Below, piece by piece: positions 39,071 to 62,294 of a DNA stretch of 64,000 bases. This stretch comes from an uncultured Candidatus Saccharibacteria bacterium (GTDB lineage Bacteria > Patescibacteriota > Minisyncoccia > Phycocordibacterales > UBA9973). How positions within the stretch are numbered: the first letter of the stretch is position 1; each line of letters starts with the position of its first letter. The DNA is taken from positions 14,175-78,174 of the forward strand of contig CAZKJE010000002.1 of the NCBI GenBank assembly GCA_964553015.1. The letters are read 5' to 3'. Below the pieces are notes generated by a model. That model saw nothing but the letters and a program-made list of their open reading frames with translations. It did no database searches and had not been told where the DNA came from. The position numbers were made by a program, and so were the translations under genes.

Positions 39071-39145
39071 TTGATATTAGTAGCAAAATAGACTTATGAA
39101 ACTACAAGAAGGATAATAGCGTAACTAAACCATAAAGTCAATTTG

Positions 39146-39535
39146 TGGAGATGGGGGAAATTGAATCCCCGTGCAGAAGGTTTTTGCAAAGAAGTCTACA
39201 TGCGTAGCGCGCTTTTTGTTTTAAATTAAAAAATTATGAAACGCGCCAAATATTTTTTAACCGAGTTCTTTTGTTTTGCGAGAGCGTCAGAACAGGCGTT
39301 CAAGCTATCCCGATAATGTTATGCCTCGTCTTATATATCGGAAGTCTATAAGAGAGACACCACCTCAGGCTTACGCGAAAGATGGAGCGAAAGCGAGCGC
39401 ATTACCGAAGTAAGGCGAACGCATTGCTGTGAAAGCTGATTTTGCAATTAGCTGTTGAACGAATTTTTACGAGATTACGTTCATTCTCGGCATGCATCAA
39501 TAACAAATGGCCAACTGTCTATGCCTTGCATCCCC
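39146..39535 (-). ncRNA. ssrA: tmRNA (SsrA)
   Basis: 5' GGGGAUG pairs with 3' CAUCUCC (G3-U70 Ala identity wobble) plus discriminator A. T-arm GGGGA-UUCAAUU-UCCCC. An in-frame GCA at nt 91 opens a tag frame ending ...NALAFAPSFA-UAA. Lies immediately downstream of smpB. Confidence 0.7.
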
Positions 39536-43323: not shown

Positions 43324-43998
43324 ATGGCGAGAAAACAAGATAAACAAAGCGTTTTGGCTATGCGCAAGAGAGGAATGAGCTACAGCCAGATCAAAGGGAA
43401 AATAAAAATAAGCAAAAGCACTTTGAGTGTCTGGCTTAAAGATTTACCACTCGATGAAAAACGGATAAGAGAATTAAGAGACAATAGCCCTATTCGTATT
43501 GAAAAATTCAGAAATACAATGCGAGCAAAAAAAGAGATGAGACTTTATGAGGTATATAAAAAAGTCGCAAATGATATTTGTGATCTCTCAAAAAGAGATT
43601 TATTTTTAACAGGCTTGTTCTTATATTGGGGAGAAGGCACGAAATCACAAAATTCTTTAGTTGCCCTCACAAATACAAATCCAGCCATGGTTAAGTTTTT
43701 CATACAATGGCTAAAATTGTTTGGAGTAAAAAGCAAAGATTTGAAAATTAAACTACATTTATACTCCGATATGAAAATTAAAGAAAGTCTTGATTTTTGG
43801 TCAAAAGAGCTTAATATTCCGATAAGCCAGTTTTATAAGCCGTATGTTAAGAAAAATACTCTCAAATCTATCTCGTATAAAAATGGCTTTGGAAAAGGAA
43901 CATGTAGTGTTATATTTGGGAGTAGAGATCTTTGGGAATATATAACAATGGGATTGAAATATATTTCTGAAATTAGTAATGAAAATTTCCGCCCCTAG
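43324..43998 (+). CDS. HTH-domain protein with a LAGLIDADG-like motif (possible free-standing homing-endonuclease-like protein); its 3' end overlaps the tRNA
   Basis: N-terminal HTH (RKRGMSYSQIKGKIKISKSTLSVWLKD); LTGLFLYWGEGTKS resembles a LAGLIDADG block; stop codon lies within tRNA positions 8-10. Confidence 0.4.
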   Translation: MARKQDKQSVLAMRKRGMSYSQIKGKIKISKSTLSVWLKDLPLDEKRIRELRDNSPIRIEKFRNTMRAKKEMRLYEVYKKVANDICDLSKRDLFLTGLFLYWGEGTKSQNSLVALTNTNPAMVKFFIQWLKLFGVKSKDLKIKLHLYSDMKIKESLDFWSKELNIPISQFYKPYVKKNTLKSISYKNGFGKGTCSVIFGSRDLWEYITMGLKYISEISNENFRP

Positions 43999-44061
43999 CT
44001 CAGTTGGTAGAGCAATCCGCTTATACCGGATCGGTCCTTGGTTCGAGTCCAAGGGGGCGGA
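43989..44061 (+). tRNA. tRNA-Ile (anticodon UAU)
   Basis: Manual cloverleaf: acceptor CCGCCCC/GGGGCGG, D-arm GCTC-AGTTGGTA-GAGC, anticodon arm ATCCG-CTTATAC-CGGAT (U33, anticodon UAU, A37), T-arm CTTGG-TTCGAGT-CCAAG; CCA not encoded. Confidence 0.8.
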
Positions 44062-56396: not shown

Positions 56397-56600
56397 TTAG
56401 TCGTCTCCTACGTGATCGTTATGGTCTATGGGCGTGATATCGTATGGTGATTTTGGTTTTTCGCCGGGTGGCGGTGGTTCGGGAAGAATACCTATTCGTA
56501 GTTCTTCCTGTATCTCTCGGAACGGCTTTCTCTGGGGAGTTGGTTCCCATTCTTCTTGGTGGTTTTTCATGTTTTTATTATAGCACAAAAAGTTATGCAC
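56397..56600 (-). CDS. Small Pro-rich hypothetical protein
   Basis: 67-aa ORF; weak support. Confidence 0.25.
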   Translation of the reverse strand: MHNFLCYNKNMKNHQEEWEPTPQRKPFREIQEELRIGILPEPPPPGEKPKSPYDITPIDHNDHVGDD

Positions 56601-56882
56601 TTTGGCAAGTACTTGACTTTGTTTATAGGTATATAATTATAGTGGAGTCAAATTGCACGCCTGAGTAGTTTGAAAGGAAATCCAAATGAGCTCTGAGTCA
56701 CGGTCACCCAATTTCCCAAGGCAGATGAAGCGGTATTGGTGGATGCGAAGGACACCACCGCCTCCATACCCCGTTCTCCGGCGCTTGCGCCTAGTGTTTC
56801 AGAACCACAACAGCGCAGTGTCACTTTCGGTCAAGGGAGTGATTCAGAGACATCTCGTGCGAGGCTAATCACTCCGCAGACC

Positions 56883-56916
56883 CGCGGGCACACCCGAGTG
56901 CCCGCTTCGTTTTTTC
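56883..56916 (+). terminator. Intrinsic terminator ending the GC-rich ileS leader (gcgggcac acccga gtgcccgc + cttcgTTTTTT)
   Basis: 8-bp GC stem plus T-run 32 nt upstream of the ileS ATG. Confidence 0.65.
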
Positions 56917-56947
56917 TTTTGATATATGGTATATTTTCTTTACATAT

Positions 56948-59900
56948 ATGCAGAAGCATGAAAACAATAACTCCAAATCAGAAGCAGCTTTGCGCGAAGA
57001 GCGAGTTTTGGAATTTTGGAAAGAAAATAAGATATTTAAAAAGTCGCTGGAGAAAAAATCCCCAAAGGGAGAATTTGTGTTTTATGATGGTCCAGTTACG
57101 GCAAACTCAAAGCCAGTTTTGCATACAATGCTACCTTTTTCTTTCAAAGATGTTATTCCCAGATATAAAACTATGCGCGGATATCATGTACGAAGGAAAG
57201 GCGGTTGGGATACGCATGGGCTTCCGGTAGAACTGCAAATAGAAAAAAAACTTGGGTTCAATTCAAAAGCAGATATTGAAAATTATGGTATTGCAGCTTT
57301 CAATAAATTATGTAAGGACAGTGTTTGGGAGTACGTTGGGGCATGGAAAAGTTTTACCGAACGAATGGGCTACTGGGCAGATCAAGATAATGCATATGTC
57401 ACATATTATAATAATTATATTGAATCTGTTTGGAATATAGTAAAAAAAATAAATGAGCAGAATCTGCTTTATAAAGATTACAAAGTGGTGCCGTGGTGCC
57501 CGAGGTGCGGTACAGCACTGTCTTCGCATGAGCTCGCACAGGGATACGAAGATGTAAAAGATCTGTCAGTGTATGTAAAGTTTAAGATAACTACGCCAGT
57601 GCAGGAAAATTCTGCCGCTTTACCCGCAAGCGGGCTCCGACACGGACAAAATTTTCCCGCATTGGCTCCGCAGTATATCCTCGCCTGGACGACGACGCCG
57701 TGGACCCTGCCCGGGAACGTTGCCTTAGCCGTCGGCGAAAATATTGATTATGTAAAGGTAAAGAGTGGAGAAGAGTTTTATATTCTCGCCAAAGAGAAGC
57801 TTTCAATCATAACCGAACCATATGAGATAGTGGAAGAGGTCAAGGGCGCGGGGCTAGTAGGGCTCGAATACGAGCCGTTGTATCCATATCTTGCAAATAC
57901 GGTTTCGGATACAGAAAAACCAAAATTAGAAAAGGCATACAAGGTGCACAAGGCAAACTTTGTGACCACAGATGACGGCACCGGCGTGGTGCATACGGCT
58001 GTGATGTATGGGCAAGATGACTTTATGCTCGGAACAGAAGTCGGCCTGCCGAAGCACCACCTCGTAGGTCTCGATGGCAAATTTTTAGCAGGCACAGGTA
58101 TTTTTGAAGGACGATTTGTAAAAGATGAAGAAGTCGCCGTAGATATCATTAAAGACTTGGCGCACCGCGGGCTTCTTTTCAAAAAAGAAAAATACGAGCA
58201 CTCGTATCCGCACTGCTGGCGCTGTAAAACTCCGCTCATATATTACGCGCGGGATTCTTGGTATATCCGGATGTCTGATCCTAGAATAAAAGCCGAAATG
58301 ATAAAGGAGAATAAAGAAATAAACTGGGAGCCGGAGCATATTCGCGACGGGCGGTTTGGGCAGTGGCTGGAAGAAATAAAAGACTGGGCAATATCCCGCG
58401 AACGGTACTGGGGCACGCCGCTGCCGGTCTGGGCCTGCGAAGCGTGTAAAAAAATTGAAGTAGTAGGAAGCGTAGAAGATCTAAAAAGTAGAACCAAAAA
58501 GTCTGGCAATAAATATTTTGTGATGCGGCACGGCGAGGCTGTCGATAACGCCAAGCATTTGGGTGATCCGAAAGGCGATCCAAATAATCACCTGACTGAT
58601 AAAGGGAAAAAAGAAATAATTCTTACCGCAGAAGAATTAAAAAATAAAAAAATTGATTTTATCTTTACGTCTTCTTTTCTGCGAACCAAAGAAACAGCAG
58701 AGGTCTTGAGAAAAGAACTAGGTTTGGAGCAAGAAAAAGTAATAGTTGAAGATAGATTGCATGAACACAATGAGGGAGACACTAAGCTCGTTCGCAAAAG
58801 GATGGCCGACTTTATTTATGAAATAGAAAAAAATTACGAAAATAAAAATATCTTAATAATTTCGCACGGAAATCCTATCTGGATCCTGCAGAAAACCGCT
58901 TTGGGCTTGTCTATAAATAATTTTACAGAAGGCGAGATGCTGCATACCGGCGAAGTCAAAGAATTAGATTTTATACCGCTACCGCATAATGAAAATTATG
59001 AGCTTGATCTGCACAAGCCTTATATAGATGAAATAAATCTTGTTTGTTCATGTGGTGGAAAATTAACACGCACGAAAGAAGTCATGGACGTGTGGTTTGA
59101 TTCGGGAGGCATGTCTTTTGCGCAGGATCATTACCCTTTCGATAACGCTTCCGGTAAATCTTTTGACGGCAAAGAACTTTTATATCCGGCGGATTTTATT
59201 TCAGAGGGCATAGATCAGACGCGCGGATGGTTTTACACCTTGCATGCTGTTGGAATTCTCTTGGGGCGGGGCAAGGCTTACAAAAACGTAATCTGCCTTG
59301 GCCATCTTCTCGACGCTAAGGGCAAAAAAATGTCCAAATCTCTCGGCAACGTCGTCGAGCCGTTTCTTGCGATGGATACATATGGCGTGGATACTTTGCG
59401 TTTGTGGATGTATTCCATAAATCAGCCGGGCGAATCCAAGAATTTTGATGAGAAAACAGTAGCGCTTCTTTCTCAGCAGATTTTTGGCTTGCTTTACAAT
59501 GTGCTTGCGTTTTATGAACTTTATCGCGATGTTTCGCTAGAGCCTAGAGCCTATGGCCTAAAGCCCAGCAATATTTTAGATAAATGGATCTTGGCGCGTC
59601 TAGATGAGTTGACAGAGCTTGCAACCAAAAATTTAGATAACTACAAATTGCTGGAGCCAGTGCGGGGCATGAGAGACTTTATCGGCGATCTTTCTACTTG
59701 GTATTTGCGCCGTTCGCGCGACAGGATAAAATCCTCCTCCGCACAAGGCTCCGGTGGAACAAGGGAAGGAGATGAAGCGAAGGAAACTCTGTACTATGTG
59801 CTAAAAACCTTGGCAAAACTCATGGCTCCGCTCGCGCCGTTTGCCGCTGAAGACATCTGGCTTAAGTTAAAAAATGAAGATGATGAAGAAAGCGTGCATT

Positions 59901-60448
59901 TGGCGAGCTGGCCGGAAGTAAAAAAGACATCTTTTATCTCCAAGTTGCTTAAAAATGATCCAAGCAAAAAAATAATTGAAAATATGGAGAGCGTCAGAAG
60001 AGTAGTCACACTCGGACTCGAAGCTCGACAGAAAACCGGAATAAAAGTCCGCCAGCCTCTTAATCAATTACGAATTAAAAATTACGAATTAGGAATTGAG
60101 TATGCAGACTTGATTAGAGAAGAGCTGAATGTCAGAGAAGTTATTTTTGATAATTCTATTGAAGGCGAGGTGTGGCTCGATATAAGAATAAACGAAGAGC
60201 TCAAAGCTGAAGGGGATTACAGGGAGTTTGTCCGCGCGCTGCAGGATATGAGAAAGAAAACCGGACTGACGCCGAGCGACGTGGTCTCTGTTACTTTTGA
60301 AACAAACAAAGCAGGCAAGGAACTTATTAAAAAATTCGAAGCTGAAATGAAAAAAACAGTGCTTGTCTCTACGATAGAATTTTCGGAAAATGAAGGAGAA
60401 AAAATAAAAATCGACAATCTTCACTTCAGGATAAAAATTGATAAATAA
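56948..60448 (+). CDS. ileS: Isoleucyl-tRNA synthetase, type 2 (eukaryote-like), with an inserted histidine-phosphatase domain
   Basis: GWDTHGLPVE, CP1 editing motifs (TTTPWTLPGN, GTGVVHTA), CWRC zinc knuckle, KMSKS; ~170-aa insert with RHGE...SSFLRTKET...ISHGNP motifs. Confidence 0.9.
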   Translation: MQKHENNNSKSEAALREERVLEFWKENKIFKKSLEKKSPKGEFVFYDGPVTANSKPVLHTMLPFSFKDVIPRYKTMRGYHVRRKGGWDTHGLPVELQIEKKLGFNSKADIENYGIAAFNKLCKDSVWEYVGAWKSFTERMGYWADQDNAYVTYYNNYIESVWNIVKKINEQNLLYKDYKVVPWCPRCGTALSSHELAQGYEDVKDLSVYVKFKITTPVQENSAALPASGLRHGQNFPALAPQYILAWTTTPWTLPGNVALAVGENIDYVKVKSGEEFYILAKEKLSIITEPYEIVEEVKGAGLVGLEYEPLYPYLANTVSDTEKPKLEKAYKVHKANFVTTDDGTGVVHTAVMYGQDDFMLGTEVGLPKHHLVGLDGKFLAGTGIFEGRFVKDEEVAVDIIKDLAHRGLLFKKEKYEHSYPHCWRCKTPLIYYARDSWYIRMSDPRIKAEMIKENKEINWEPEHIRDGRFGQWLEEIKDWAISRERYWGTPLPVWACEACKKIEVVGSVEDLKSRTKKSGNKYFVMRHGEAVDNAKHLGDPKGDPNNHLTDKGKKEIILTAEELKNKKIDFIFTSSFLRTKETAEVLRKELGLEQEKVIVEDRLHEHNEGDTKLVRKRMADFIYEIEKNYENKNILIISHGNPIWILQKTALGLSINNFTEGEMLHTGEVKELDFIPLPHNENYELDLHKPYIDEINLVCSCGGKLTRTKEVMDVWFDSGGMSFAQDHYPFDNASGKSFDGKELLYPADFISEGIDQTRGWFYTLHAVGILLGRGKAYKNVICLGHLLDAKGKKMSKSLGNVVEPFLAMDTYGVDTLRLWMYSINQPGESKNFDEKTVALLSQQIFGLLYNVLAFYELYRDVSLEPRAYGLKPSNILDKWILARLDELTELATKNLDNYKLLEPVRGMRDFIGDLSTWYLRRSRDRIKSSSAQGSGGTREGDEAKETLYYVLKTLAKLMAPLAPFAAEDIWLKLKNEDDEESVHLASWPEVKKTSFISKLLKNDPSKKIIENMESVRRVVTLGLEARQKTGIKVRQPLNQLRIKNYELGIEYADLIREELNVREVIFDNSIEGEVWLDIRINEELKAEGDYREFVRALQDMRKKTGLTPSDVVSVTFETNKAGKELIKKFEAEMKKTVLVSTIEFSENEGEKIKIDNLHFRIKIDK

Positions 60449-60452
60449 AAAT

Positions 60453-61055
60453 ATGAAGCTCGTTATTTTTGATTTTGATGGGGTGCTGGTTGATACGCTC
60501 ATAATGCATTATGAGATCAGTAAAAAAATCAATAAAAATATGTCTCTTGACATGTTTCGTTCCATTTTTAGTGGGAATATCTACGATTCATTAAAAAATA
60601 ATCCTGCCATAAAACAACATCCTCAGTTTTTCGAGCAATATGAAGACAAATCACGAGAGCTCAAAGTGCCTCAATCGTTGAAGGGTTTGATAGGTAAATT
60701 AAGCAAAGAACATACCCTTGCGATTGTTTCATCAACTCCATCTGCGCTCATTAGAAAAATTCTAAAACAAGAAGCTGTTTTAAATTATTTTTCTGATGTA
60801 CTTGGGGCAGATGTTAATACAAGTAAAGTTATTAAAATAAGAATGCTTTTGGGAAAATATAAAATTAAACAAGAAGATGCAGTTTTTATTACAGATACCA
60901 CAGGGGACATTTTTGAGGCCCTAGAATGCGGAGTAAAAGCCATAGCTGTCACATGGGGTTTTCACGAAGAAAAAACATTAGAAAAATCAAATCCAGCGAA
61001 AATTGTTAGGAGCCCCGAAGAATTATTTGAAGCTGTGAAGCAAATTTTGTGTTAA
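60453..61055 (+). CDS. HAD-superfamily hydrolase
   Basis: MKLVIFDFDGVLVDT motif I. Confidence 0.8.
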   Translation: MKLVIFDFDGVLVDTLIMHYEISKKINKNMSLDMFRSIFSGNIYDSLKNNPAIKQHPQFFEQYEDKSRELKVPQSLKGLIGKLSKEHTLAIVSSTPSALIRKILKQEAVLNYFSDVLGADVNTSKVIKIRMLLGKYKIKQEDAVFITDTTGDIFEALECGVKAIAVTWGFHEEKTLEKSNPAKIVRSPEELFEAVKQILC

Positions 61056-61064
61056 AATAGAAGG

Positions 61065-61703
61065 ATGAAGATAACAAAGCTGGGGCACTCTTGTTTTATC
61101 GCAGAGCCAAAACAGGGAGTGCGAGTGATGACAGATCCTGGGGCATTTTCGCCTTTGGCAACAGAAATAAAAAATATTTCTGCAATTTTAATTACCCATG
61201 AACATTCGGATCATCTGCATATTGAAACCTTAAAAAAAGTTTTAGATAACAATCCTGATGCAGTCGTTATAACAAATACTGAAGTAGGCAAACACCTTGA
61301 AGAAGCCGGAATCAAGTATATAAAAATTGAAAACGGTCAAAAATATGATTTAAACGGAGTAATTATCGTCGGTTTTGGAAATACTCATGCCGAAATTTAT
61401 CCAACAATTGGTCCGTTTCAAAATACTGGATATATAATTGAGGGCCTCTGTTATCCGGGAGACGCCCTAGAGAACCCTGATTCAAAAGTAAACATAATAG
61501 CTCTTCCTATTATTGGACCATGGATGAGACTAAGAGACGCGATTGATTACGCAAAAGCATTAAAACCAAAAGCCGTATTTCCAATTCATGATGCAATACT
61601 GCAGAACTGGGCGACTTTCGTGTCGGCTACTTCAGAGAAATTACTAAAAGAAGCTGGTATAGAATTTAAAAAATTGGAACTAGGTAAGGAAGAAGACCTG
61701 TAA
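61065..61703 (+). CDS. MBL-fold metallo-hydrolase
   Basis: THEHSDH metal-binding motif. Confidence 0.75.
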   Translation: MKITKLGHSCFIAEPKQGVRVMTDPGAFSPLATEIKNISAILITHEHSDHLHIETLKKVLDNNPDAVVITNTEVGKHLEEAGIKYIKIENGQKYDLNGVIIVGFGNTHAEIYPTIGPFQNTGYIIEGLCYPGDALENPDSKVNIIALPIIGPWMRLRDAIDYAKALKPKAVFPIHDAILQNWATFVSATSEKLLKEAGIEFKKLELGKEEDL

Positions 61704-61712
61704 AAATCAGAA

Positions 61713-62294
61713 ATGCACCACATTTATCATACTGAAGGCATAATATTGGGCAGTAGAGGCTACGGCGAAACGGGGAAGTACTATTCTATTTTTACTAAAG
61801 ATTTAGGCATGATATACGCGTGCGCACAAGGCGTGCGCAAGATGTCTTCCAAGCTGCGTTTTATTCTGCAGGATTTTGCTTATCTAAAAATTGATCTGGT
61901 GCAGGGGAAGGATTTTTGGCGGGTGACCAGCGCTTCTAAAACTAATATACTTGAAAATGTTTCTAAAAATTCTTCAACCCTAAAGGTATTTTTCAACATC
62001 GCAAGCCTGCTCAAAAGACTGCTCGCCGGCGTAGAGCCAAATCCCGCTTTATTTTCTGATTTAATCAATGGTCTTGCAGTGTTGGAAAAAATAGAAAAGG
62101 AAGCGGACTTGCGAAATGTTGAAGCAGTCATGGTCTTGCGAATTCTTAACAACTTGGGGTATATAGGCGGAGATAAAATTCTGGAAAATCTTATCACGTC
62201 TCCTTTTGAGCAAGAGCTTATATATGAAGCCTCAAAGCAGAGGCGCGATGTTCTCAAAGAAATCAATAAAGCGTTAAAAGAAACGCATTTGTAA
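61713..62294 (+). CDS. recO: DNA repair protein RecO (short form)
   Basis: N-terminal OB-fold pattern (EGIILGSRGYGETGK...ACAQGVRKMSSKL). Confidence 0.6.
   Translation: MHHIYHTEGIILGSRGYGETGKYYSIFTKDLGMIYACAQGVRKMSSKLRFILQDFAYLKIDLVQGKDFWRVTSASKTNILENVSKNSSTLKVFFNIASLLKRLLAGVEPNPALFSDLINGLAVLEKIEKEADLRNVEAVMVLRILNNLGYIGGDKILENLITSPFEQELIYEASKQRRDVLKEINKALKETHL

Follow-up and report, generated by a model that had tools for sequence, protein, structure and literature searches.

Within the 64,000-nt stretch of Patescibacteria (CPR) DNA analysed here (the window), ileS encodes a type-2 isoleucyl-tRNA synthetase (IleRS) inside which, as judged from structural models, there is a complete branch-1 histidine phosphatase with a confident fold and well-ordered linkers. 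The gene occupies 56948..60448 of the plus strand as a single unbroken open reading frame of 1166 codons plus a stop codon. The nested phosphatase, a short form lacking the cap, comprises residues 515-678 (58490..58981, plus strand), as delimited by the Pfam model PF00300, by alignment to the IleRS structure 8c8w and by its predicted fold.

The synthetase that surrounds the insert is assigned to type 2 by its nearest structures and its C-terminal domain. Its best matches in the PDB were Priestia megaterium IleRS2 (8c8w, 770 bits) and the Thermus thermophilus enzyme (1ile, 727 bits), compared to 310-321 bits for 8c9f and 1ffy, which are type-1 enzymes, and Pfam placed DUF5915 at its C-terminus and also matched Anticodon_1. 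The TIGR00392 ileS model scored 868.9 bits (cutoff 621.4), and the full-length AF2 model reached a mean pLDDT of 89.6 and a pTM of 0.84. The window protein is colinear with 8c8w and 1ile over the full length, sharing the CP1 motifs, KMSKS, the anticodon-binding and C-terminal domains and the CxxC...CxC hairpin, but these enzymes have 2 residues where the window protein has the 164-residue phosphatase. The N-terminal part, residues 1-514 (56948..58489, plus strand), aligned with 8c8w chain residues 7-476 and contains the first half of the Rossmann fold, the CP1 editing domain and CP2, through the WGTPLPVW strand and the first zinc-knuckle half, with GWDTHGLP at residues 86-93, CWRC at 423-426 and CEAC at 497-500. 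The C-terminal part, residues 679-1166 (58982..60445, plus strand), aligned with chain residues 479-848 and beyond and contains DLHKPYIDE (residues 687-695), CSCGG (700-704; 59045-59059), DVWFDSG (714-720), KMSKS (794-798; 59327-59341) and the anticodon-binding and DUF5915 domains. The CP1 editing domain was recognized by WTTTPWTLP at residues 247-255 and by DGTGVVHTAVMYGQDDF, both conserved with relatives. As side observations, CP1 carries an additional disordered 20-aa segment compared to the IleRS2 structures, and a 72-nt palindromic element is present in this ileS, within 57.59-57.67 kb.

All of the phosphatase and synthetase motifs quoted in the preliminary description were found in frame within 56948..60448, and the flanking synthetase motifs that it listed are indeed intact; the class-I HIGH signature, which it did not list, is atypical. 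In the alignment of relatives this position (57116..57127, plus strand) reads VLHT and not HxGH (37/62 relatives) or GxHH (24/62), and VLHT is common only to the window and one other locus, L004. The third-position His is retained, Thr stands in place of the fourth-position His, and KMSKS is intact. Since VLHT is unusual, full synthetase activity of the window IleRS is an assumption. The models for the mupirocin-resistant enzymes MupA and MupB remained below cutoff (751 and 737 bits versus 1900), as did the ileS_w_GNAT model NF040702 (333 bits versus 1999). The latter family, named [quoted passage not shown], is a precedent for a bacterial IleRS with an added catalytic domain, although the added domain is a GNAT and not a phosphatase.

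In the alignment to 8c8w, query residues 514 and 679 were paired with chain residues 476 and 479, respectively, so that the insert corresponds to residues 515-678 (164 aa). It separates the CxxC half of the zinc knuckle from the CxC half in an otherwise intact type-2 IleRS. The preliminary description had placed it correctly, after the CxxC motif and ahead of DLHKPYIDE, but had given it about 170 aa; the start stated there (58488) misses the codon boundary at 58487 by one base, and the stated end (58995) is 14 nt past the insert. Searched alone, the insert matched His_Phos_1 (PF00300) with 90.8 bits (E 1e-25; cutoff 21.7), and the whole protein matched with 83.4 bits, bearing out the in-frame branch-1 histidine-phosphatase domain that had been claimed. 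The phosphatase motifs FVMRHGEAVDN (within residues 519-534), LTDKG (549-553), SSFLRTKETAEVL (575-587) and ISHGNPIW (638-645) are in frame. The model of the isolated domain had a pLDDT of 94.1, showed the three-layer alpha/beta fold of branch-1 histidine phosphatases and matched PhoE, PspA, a riboflavin-pathway HFP and Rv2419c in fold, while the linker blocks around the insert had pLDDT values of 89-93 in the full-length model. The insert also covers nearly the whole length of its stand-alone relatives. There was no step in GC content at the insert edges exceeding the variation along ileS.

The branch-1 catalytic core is complete in the insert, and its residues are conserved in 59 to 62 of 62 diverged full-length fusions. 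The RHG motif contributes R527 and H528 (58526..58531, plus strand; 60/62 and 62/62), H528 being the predicted phospho-acceptor nucleophile, and this pair was invariant in two further alignments (A1 and A3). The second phosphate-binding Arg is R579 of the SSFLRTKET motif (58682..58684, plus strand; 60/62), the predicted general acid is E606 (58763..58765, plus strand; 59/62), and the second catalytic His is H640 of the ISHGNPIW motif (58865..58867, plus strand; 61/62).

The insert reached the NCBIfam cutoff of no named phosphatase family, SixA included. Its description as SixA/PGM-like is sound at the level of the superfamily (PF00300), whereas membership in SixA (TIGR00249, 44.4 bits versus 74.5; stand-alone relatives 32-36 bits) or dPGM (NF038349, 55.6 versus 225; TIGR01258, 27.3 versus 81.7) is rejected. 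GpmB was likewise below cutoff, and so were the alpha-ribazole phosphatase CobC (TIGR03162, 47.6 versus 162.9) and the phosphoserine phosphatase PspA (NF045917, 50.6 versus 350), whose cutoffs were also not reached by the stand-alone and long forms. The structural neighbours PhoE/YhfR (1h2e), PspA (4ij5), the riboflavin-pathway HFP (9mmh) and Rv2419c (4qih) are 17-27% identical to the insert; unlike them, the insert is nested in another enzyme, and the window form is without their substrate-selecting cap. SixA (1ujc) matched the insert less well than these small-molecule phosphatases, and most of the family, being of the long form, differs from SixA in size. Known fusions of histidine phosphatases are end-to-end and have different partners, as in the mycobacterial RNase H/acid phosphatase Rv2228c (NF005567, 51 bits versus a cutoff of 326) and the MutT1 Nudix-histidine phosphatase (NF052459, PDB 9cxx, 15 bits versus 475). 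A role as a defence component was not supported by PADLOC, which returned only a chance-level match for the insert (E 0.004, 13.7 bits) and none for P0008, P0002 and P0156.

The window copy is a derived short form. A cap segment of about 30-40 aa, present in most relatives, is absent downstream of E606 after G610, and in the full-length model the pLDDT falls to 79 at residues 601-610. Because the active-site cap is missing, the site should be more open to bulky substrates. The short form is common to the window and 12 related genomes or loci, among which the catalytic residues are invariant. Identity to the window within this clade was 0.40-0.69 for the insert, 0.44-0.72 for the IleRS body and 0.30-0.54 for the C-terminus, so by these sequence comparisons the insert is about as conserved as the body. 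The host site is a surface zinc-knuckle hairpin (CxxC...CxC) between the WGTPLPVW and DVWFDSG strands, and its first half, CEAC (58436..58447, plus strand), brackets the insert. Across the loci both knuckle halves were present in 32, neither in 43 and only one in 3, such that the knuckle is missing in more than half of them. A search of the IleRS structure literature did not find residue boundaries or a role for this hairpin.

In sequence databases the fusion is frequent among Patescibacteria. At E<=1e-30, proteins from at least 205 clusters (formed at 50% identity) matched, and of the 150 clusters listed nearly all contain the fusion; a search with a single junction pattern found it encoded by 250 species-representative genomes. 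Among these genomes, every lineage named in the 80 record titles listed belongs to the Patescibacteria. The databases name these proteins isoleucyl-tRNA synthetase or class I tRNA ligase family protein, the latter being the only name in the public record of at least one of them, P0089. The literature searched yielded no description or explanation of an IleRS-phosphatase fusion; the earlier statement that no such IleRS had been described therefore holds for that literature and not for the databases.

The nearest stand-alone homologues of the insert formed five clusters (P0002, P0004, P0008, P0010 and P0013). In four of them the phosphatase gene immediately precedes ileS in the same orientation, with about 1-58 nt between the two, while in the fifth one gene separates the phosphatase from ileS. 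The adjoining ileS is free of the insert wherever its full sequence is available; the contigs of L086 and L089 hold only its N-terminus. Because these stand-alone relatives are encoded just ahead of an ileS that lacks the insert, the pairing of phosphatase and IleRS exists in both a neighbouring and a nested arrangement. The two forms are mutually exclusive at the locus, and no fusion locus contains a second phosphatase copy within +-5 kb. A ValRS with the same domain nested at the homologous WGHRIPVW site was found in two sources. Within the IleRS family the insert is common to two very different backbones, about 45% identical, and pairwise identities of insert and IleRS body were weakly correlated (rho 0.10-0.20) with a clear mosaic, which rules out strict co-descent. 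This discordant ancestry, seen in sequence comparison, suggests that the phosphatase cassette was swapped between IleRS backbones. Other inserts occur in the same IleRS family, namely a second phosphatase and, in P0156, a P-loop kinase-like AAA_18/AAA_33 domain.

The conserved neighbour of ileS is recO, in 66 loci. The HAD phosphatase gene overlapping the stop codon of ileS in the window was rejected as a functional partner, since a HAD homologue was present in only 8/80 related loci and immediately downstream of ileS in only 4/72 loci with room for one. Upstream of ileS there is a structured leader in which no T-box or other known riboswitch was recognized: the window had no Rfam match even at E<=1, 13 related loci had none at the gathering threshold, and the leader is not conserved in nucleotide sequence.

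We lean, by a little more than even judgement, towards the view that the domain is active as a phosphatase and that its activity is functionally coupled to IleRS. The ileS product would then be a two-enzyme protein, a type-2 IleRS with a nested branch-1 histidine phosphatase that would act as a phosphomonoesterase through a phospho-His528 intermediate, its activity being tied to isoleucylation and not to unrelated housekeeping. A candidate substrate would be a nucleotide-type ligand of aminoacylation that bears a terminal phosphate, the likeliest being the 2'/3'-phosphorylated acceptor end of tRNA-Ile, healed into a chargeable form, with a product or by-product nucleotide as second choice. Taken by itself, the tRNA-end substrate is a tentative proposal that we rate as rather unlikely. 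Phosphates or pyrophosphates at the 2'/3' position of A76 are of the kind made by tRNA-targeting toxins, and in its fullest version, which we consider unlikely, the nested phosphatase would give a class Ia synthetase a third catalytic site, one that removes them from tRNA-Ile before the same enzyme charges it. Weak hints of a nucleotide or RNA substrate are the stand-alone phosphatases that are extremely basic (4/7), the AAA_18/AAA_33 domain of P0156 and the absence of the cap in the window. The basic charge was set aside as evidence of RNA binding because the signal is mixed, leaving only a weak hint: the nested domains have a median pI of 6.3, close to neutral, and two of the stand-alone copies are acidic, which does not favour direct RNA binding. 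Counting against the coupled and tRNA-end readings are also the nearest structural relatives, which are small-molecule phosphatases, and the cap, which is kept in most fusions. In addition, tRNA-end repair is not obviously a need restricted to tRNA-Ile, the PADLOC comparison revealed no resemblance to catalogued defence proteins, and the neighbour arrangement could be explained by conserved synteny alone.

These points bear on a different explanation, which we regard as a possibility well short of probable, namely that the domain is a PhoE/PspA/CobC-type housekeeping phosphatase that was co-expressed with ileS and became lodged in a tolerant hairpin, with IleRS as its carrier and a metabolite substrate unrelated to charging. 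The best fold and sequence matches to small-molecule phosphatases and the retention in most copies of the cap that defines their pockets are consistent with such a passenger. So are a host hairpin that is dispensable, given the frequent loss of the knuckle, the acceptance of other inserts by this IleRS family (the palindromic element of the window among them) and the habit of domain fusion and swapping noted for CPR aminoacyl-tRNA synthetase genes (PMC5370408). However, losing a stop codon is not enough to turn a neighbouring gene into an internal domain, so the pairing must have arisen, or persisted, through at least two separate rearrangements. The cassette has moreover been kept across both IleRS backbones, the domain recurs at the homologous ValRS site, and the fused and neighbour forms do not occur together at a locus, all of which speak against a mere passenger and for coupling to the synthetase.

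By analogy with SixA, PGAM5 and Sts, which are protein phosphatases with the histidine-phosphatase fold, the domain might instead dephosphorylate IleRS or a partner, for example in order to reverse inhibition by a Hip-type kinase toxin. The toxins HipA and HipT phosphorylate and thereby inactivate GluRS and TrpRS, and the full-length model places the domain rigidly on the catalytic domain; but the SixA score is well under its cutoff, most family members have a cap, the ileS neighbourhood contains no conserved kinase, and to our knowledge IleRS has not been reported as a target of Hip-type toxins, which makes this role very unlikely. We give as little credence to a non-catalytic module, either a sensor or regulator of IleRS that only binds a phosphorylated ligand, or a structural brace that replaces the zinc knuckle. 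The knuckle is frequently absent where the domain is present, yet the near-invariant nucleophile, general acid and second His form a pattern of catalysis and not of binding alone. Finally, some relatives are broken (L001 by a TAA in frame plus a frameshift in an A-run, L088 and L091 by many frameshifts), and these, together with the discordant ancestry of insert and body, could point to an assembly chimera, a frameshifted pseudogene or an intein-like mobile element. This is extremely improbable: the window frame is intact; nearly all of about 65 independently assembled relatives, counted from ileS loci not cut by a contig end, have the domain at the same position in one open frame; the domain is under purifying selection; and a Pfam scan of the window protein found no intein or endonuclease motifs. 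The broken relatives resemble error-prone assemblies, and the pattern in L001 and L091 (one TAA with an A-run frameshift, or many frameshifts) indicates assembly errors or pseudogenes and rules out stop-codon recoding of these split genes.

Returning to the coupled phosphatase that we prefer, its pairing with IleRS is kept in evolution, either as a gene upstream of ileS or as a nested domain. We know of no bacterial aminoacyl-tRNA synthetase that carries a phosphatase, nor of an aminoacylation or editing step that needs one. A built-in activity for healing tRNA ends or countering toxins, if true, would be previously unknown in any aminoacyl-tRNA synthetase. For annotation, the consequence is that these fusions go under plain synthetase or ligase-family names, while the long, short and stand-alone forms, with or without a zinc knuckle, are natural variants of the system. 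The organisms that host the pairing are minimal, host-dependent bacteria, and its retention across much of the Patescibacteria, the exchange between backbones and the recurrence in ValRS argue for an unrecognised phosphate-removing step tied to isoleucine charging, whose substrate could reveal new tRNA repair or quality control, a new connection of nucleotide metabolism to translation, or a means of resistance.

The ileS gene of the window (56948..60448, + strand) is a single open reading frame of 1166 codons, and the motifs quoted in the preliminary description, which had reported a SixA/PGM-like histidine-phosphatase domain in a continuous ileS frame, were all found in it. The product scored 868.9 bits against TIGR00392 (the NCBI isoleucine--tRNA ligase equivalog; cutoff 621.4), and Pfam matched tRNA-synt_1, Anticodon_1, DUF5915 and His_Phos_1 (PF00300). 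The nearest solved structures were type-2 enzymes, Priestia megaterium IleRS2 (8c8w, 770 bits) and Thermus thermophilus IleRS (1ile, 727 bits), with type-1 structures reaching only 310-321 bits. Together with intact KMSKS and editing motifs, this shows the host to be a complete IleRS2-type enzyme. In the alignment with 8c8w, query residues 10-514 paired with chain residues 7-476 and query residues 679-1066 with chain residues 479-848; since both edges are fixed by this alignment, the insert comprises residues 515-678 (164 aa; nt 58490-58981, + strand), placed between chain residues 476 and 479, where IleRS2 has two residues. The coordinates first proposed (58488-58995) were thus correct within a few bases. 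The insert is bracketed by the zinc-knuckle halves CEAC (497-500) and CSCGG (700-704) and has the conserved strands WGTPLPVW (488-495) and DVWFDSG (714-720) on either side.

When the insert, extended by about 45-60 IleRS residues at either end, served as query for an exhaustive HMMER search against 1.84 billion cluster representatives, at least 205 clusters matched at E<=1e-30, and for nearly all of the 150 listed the match extended out of the IleRS flank into phosphatase sequence. The junction pattern [KT]SGNKYFV alone matched 250 genomes, with one genome searched per GTDB species. Whether orthologues in related genomes carry the insert, a question raised by the preliminary description, is thereby answered in the affirmative. 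All lineages named in the 80 listed record titles belong to Patescibacteria/CPR (Zambryski-, Nomura-, Campbell-, Kaiser- and Wolfebacteria, Paceibacteria and others), and in these 80 loci the insert-bearing ileS, unless cut by a contig end, forms one open frame about 1065-1370 codons long, with shorter exceptions at two loci (L003, 981; L057, 986). The fusion is neither an artefact nor a singleton. In the orthologue at locus L001 (4720-8242, GCA_034680565.1) the gene has two breaks, an in-frame TAA at the Ser codon in YEHSYPHCWRC plus a frameshift in an A-run, reflecting either sequencing error or a recent pseudogene; loci L088 and L091 are fragmented in a similar manner. Among the proteins found in the search, the closest to the insert region were 59-69% identical.

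The insert alone matched PF00300 at 90.8 bits (E 1e-25, cutoff 21.7; 83.4 bits within the whole protein), and its AlphaFold2 model, built from a 30-sequence alignment, had a mean pLDDT of 94.1 and a pTM of 0.90, in agreement with the assignment first made from motifs. In the full-length model (49-sequence alignment; mean pLDDT 89.6, pTM 0.84) the phosphatase blocks scored 76-96, mostly 87-96, and the two linkers 89 and 92-93; the phosphatase is predicted to sit rigidly nested inside IleRS without disturbing the IleRS fold. Because the insert reached the curated cutoff of no named family (SixA 44.4/74.5, archaeal dPGM 55.6/225, CobC 47.6/162.9, PspA 50.6/350), we place it in a branch-1 histidine phosphatase subfamily outside the named families; two stand-alone relatives and one long-form fusion likewise scored below cutoff for every family matched. 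The term "SixA-like" holds for its small size only. Across 62 full-length fusions (cluster matches no shorter than 1090 aa, with bodies about 45% identical in pairwise comparison), H528 and S575 were conserved in all 62, H640 in 61, R527 and R579 in 60 each, and E606 and R618 in 59 each, showing that the guest is a complete histidine phosphatase with its full catalytic set under purifying selection.

The segment from WGxPxPxW to HRPYxD spans 180-204 aa in 14 sequences, the window's among them; in the remaining 65 it spans 219-250 aa. The short form, a derived one, lacks a "cap" of ~30-40 residues (consensus xFDGKxxxEY...PxGGES) found after E606 in other members. Identity to the window within the short-form clade was 0.40-0.69 for the insert, 0.44-0.72 for the IleRS body and 0.30-0.54 for the C-terminal domain, so that the insert is as conserved as the body and more so than the C-terminal domain. 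Since the clade conserves the insert, all catalytic residues (invariant) and a common derived motif, DPKGDPNNHLT, the short form is a lineage trait and not an assembly defect. The zinc knuckle around the insert (CxxC...CxC) had both halves in 32 sequences, neither in 43 and one without the other in 3, and is thus absent from more than half of the fusions (loci L002-L081); because it is missing in 43 fusion genes and its halves are nearly always lost together, the knuckle is kept or lost as a unit and the metal site is dispensable in these enzymes. Related architectures were also found. A ValRS-like protein (P0141) carries four His_Phos_1 domains (417 bits), and a ValRS-like gene of locus L091 (3369-7188, GCA_942491595.1; a frameshifted assembly) carries several, with a phosphatase directly after WGHRIPVW, a site homologous to WGTPLPVW of IleRS. 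Two IleRS clusters (P0134 and P0164) have two phosphatase domains each, the second of P0134 lying just before the anticodon-binding domain, and a third (P0156) adds to its phosphatase a P-loop kinase-like AAA_18/AAA_33 domain at residues about 746-869.

The nearest stand-alone relatives of the insert are proteins of 189-212 aa with 35-41% identity. Four of them (P0008, P0004, P0002 and P0010) are encoded by the gene that immediately precedes ileS in the same orientation, at a distance of about 1-58 nt, and a fifth (P0013) is separated from ileS by one gene, the usual order being argS - phosphatase - ileS - recO. In tblastn searches with the window protein, residues about 518-674 matched the upstream phosphatase gene, while residues 17-515 and about 643/689-1117 matched the adjacent insert-free ileS (955-969 aa); absence of the insert is readable only where ileS is complete, and two loci (L086, L089) hold only its N-terminus on the contig. 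The stand-alone proteins align with the insert all the way from their own first few residues (xKYFxLRHGE) to their last (GEVKELN), so that the insert amounts to a whole phosphatase gene. No second phosphatase copy was found within 5 kb of any fusion locus or in the 64-kb window. As a neighbouring gene cannot become an internal domain by loss of a stop codon, a real rearrangement must link the two arrangements. The pairing is kept through this rearrangement; IleRS has the phosphatase as its partner either as a neighbour gene or as a nested domain, which shows that the pairing itself is under selection and provides a strong evolutionary signal for a functional link.

Insert and body identities were only weakly correlated: rho was 0.10 for the 62 representatives, a value that 2 of 500 permutations reached, and 0.20 for 65 loci, a value that none of 500 reached, and only 12 of 65 sequences had the same nearest neighbour by both. 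RecO identity served as an independent marker of locus ancestry. Two loci with a long-form insert (L062 and L077) resembled the window at 0.76-0.77 in the N-terminal body, 0.44-0.45 in the insert, 0.74-0.75 in the C-terminal body and 67-69% in RecO; for two with a short-form insert on a canonical HxGH backbone (L003 and L005) these values were 0.45-0.46, 0.61-0.63, 0.41-0.50 and 67-72%, and for two in which the whole ileS is similar (L002 and L004), 0.68-0.73, 0.63-0.69, 0.59-0.60 and 32-33%. RecO thus groups L003, L005, L062 and L077 with the window and leaves L002 and L004 outside; the window RecO is 72% identical to those of L005 and L001, and the window IleRS body 77% identical to that of L062. 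By these identities the source organism is probably a bacterium of the Parcubacteria/Paceibacteria class, close to Candidatus Nomurabacteria. The simplest reading of these comparisons would be that the phosphatase cassette, or ileS segments, were exchanged between lineages and two IleRS backbones, the phosphatase probably being retained inside IleRS each time.

The ileS-recO linkage, present in 66 of 80 loci, is the conserved feature of the neighbourhood. In the window, a HAD-family phosphatase gene (60438-61055, +; 11-nt overlap with the ileS stop codon) and an MBL-fold gene (61065-61703) precede recO (61713-62294); such genes lie between ileS and recO in 8 and 11 of 80 loci, respectively, and are variable inserts. 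Upstream of ileS, a sigma-70-like promoter (ttgact..tataat, near 56612-56645, +) is accompanied by a GC-rich leader of about 280 nt (within 56600-56945, +); shortly ahead of the ileS start comes a terminator-like hairpin, gcgggcac...gtgcccgc, trailed by a T-run (together at about 56883-56925). The leader has a better predicted fold than shuffled sequences (z -2.6). Neither a T-box nor any other Rfam family was matched, and relatives show no conservation of the leader, which could be an attenuator or leader of uncharacterised type. At the class-I signature position (57116-57127, +; residues 57-60) the gene reads VLHT, with Thr at the fourth position, in common with L004 (Parcubacteria GW2011_GWA2_40_14) only; 37 of 62 relatives have HxGH and 24 the IleRS2-type GxHH, which has been linked to mupirocin hyper-resistance (PMC10485003). 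An in-frame GC-rich palindromic element (57595-57666, +; 20-nt arms, 85% complementary, inner hairpin CCGCTT/AAGCGG) occurs once in the window and encodes residues ~219-240, which are disordered in the model (pLDDT below 50) and absent from relatives save for a shorter extra segment in L004; it looks like a small hairpin element tolerated within coding sequence. The Rfam scan also located a tmRNA gene (39143-39535, -; 119.6 bits) and a single tRNA gene (43989-44061, +) in the whole window.

Judging from sequence, we lean towards the view that the nested domain is active as a phosphatase and functionally coupled to isoleucylation. In this superfamily a His attacks the phosphate, an acid protonates the leaving group and the phospho-histidine is hydrolysed; here H528 would attack the terminal phosphate of the substrate, E606 would protonate the leaving group and the intermediate would then be hydrolysed, in a role tied to isoleucylation. 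Since histidine phosphatases need a terminal phosphate, there are few candidates around an aminoacyl-tRNA synthetase: tRNA with a phosphorylated 3' end, the 5' phosphate of tRNA, nucleotides (AMP/ADP/ATP or alarmone-type), PPi and phospho-proteins. We favour a nucleotide-type substrate because the domain is anchored on the catalytic domain with an active-site strand on either side, ValRS (the closest paralogue of IleRS, in which the CCA end also shuttles between two sites) uses the same insertion site, the cap is missing from the window's form, one relative adds the kinase-like domain, and of the seven free-standing forms four are extremely basic (net charge per 100 aa of +9 to +16, pI above 9.8; neighbouring proteins of three of them, +1 to +7). 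These points are weak, and against them stand the near-neutral charge of the nested domains, the cap present in most of them, and nearest structural relatives that act on small molecules. The 2'/3'-phosphorylated tRNA acceptor end comes first among the candidates, unlikely as it is in itself; we found no reason why tRNA-Ile alone would need repair.

That IleRS merely carries a passenger metabolic phosphatase is possible, if rather improbable: the small-molecule relatives would suit such a role, and the selected pairing speaks for a functional link. We assign little probability to a protein-phosphatase role, a phospho-protein being one conceivable substrate, and little to a non-catalytic role, to be set beside the near-invariant catalytic residues, or to an artefactual fusion, to be set beside its recurrence across genomes. 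The coupled phosphatase remains our preferred reading. In possible mode of action, the nearest analogies may be mycobacterial MutT1 and the RNase H/acid phosphatase Rv2228c, in which a histidine phosphatase is likewise fused to a nucleotide or nucleic-acid enzyme, and the NF040702 IleRS variants, which likewise have an extra catalytic domain; the window protein is a member of none of these.

IleRS and histidine phosphatase are each a known kind, and the window protein belongs to both. For their combination, we found no description in the searchable literature and no curated family that covers it; full-text search gave no mention, and targeted reading of a CPR aaRS paper and of a 2026 survey annotating domain architectures in a 96,219-sequence IleRS database gave none either. 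The statement that no IleRS with this fusion had been described thus stands for the literature; the sequence databases contain many, under no more specific a name than "isoleucyl-tRNA synthetase" or "class I tRNA ligase family protein". The mosaic ileS points to segments of this gene being often recombined or transferred among Patescibacteria, and the arrangement in which the catalytic domain of a class Ia synthetase houses a histidine phosphatase, matched elsewhere by a neighbouring-gene version, is not rare.
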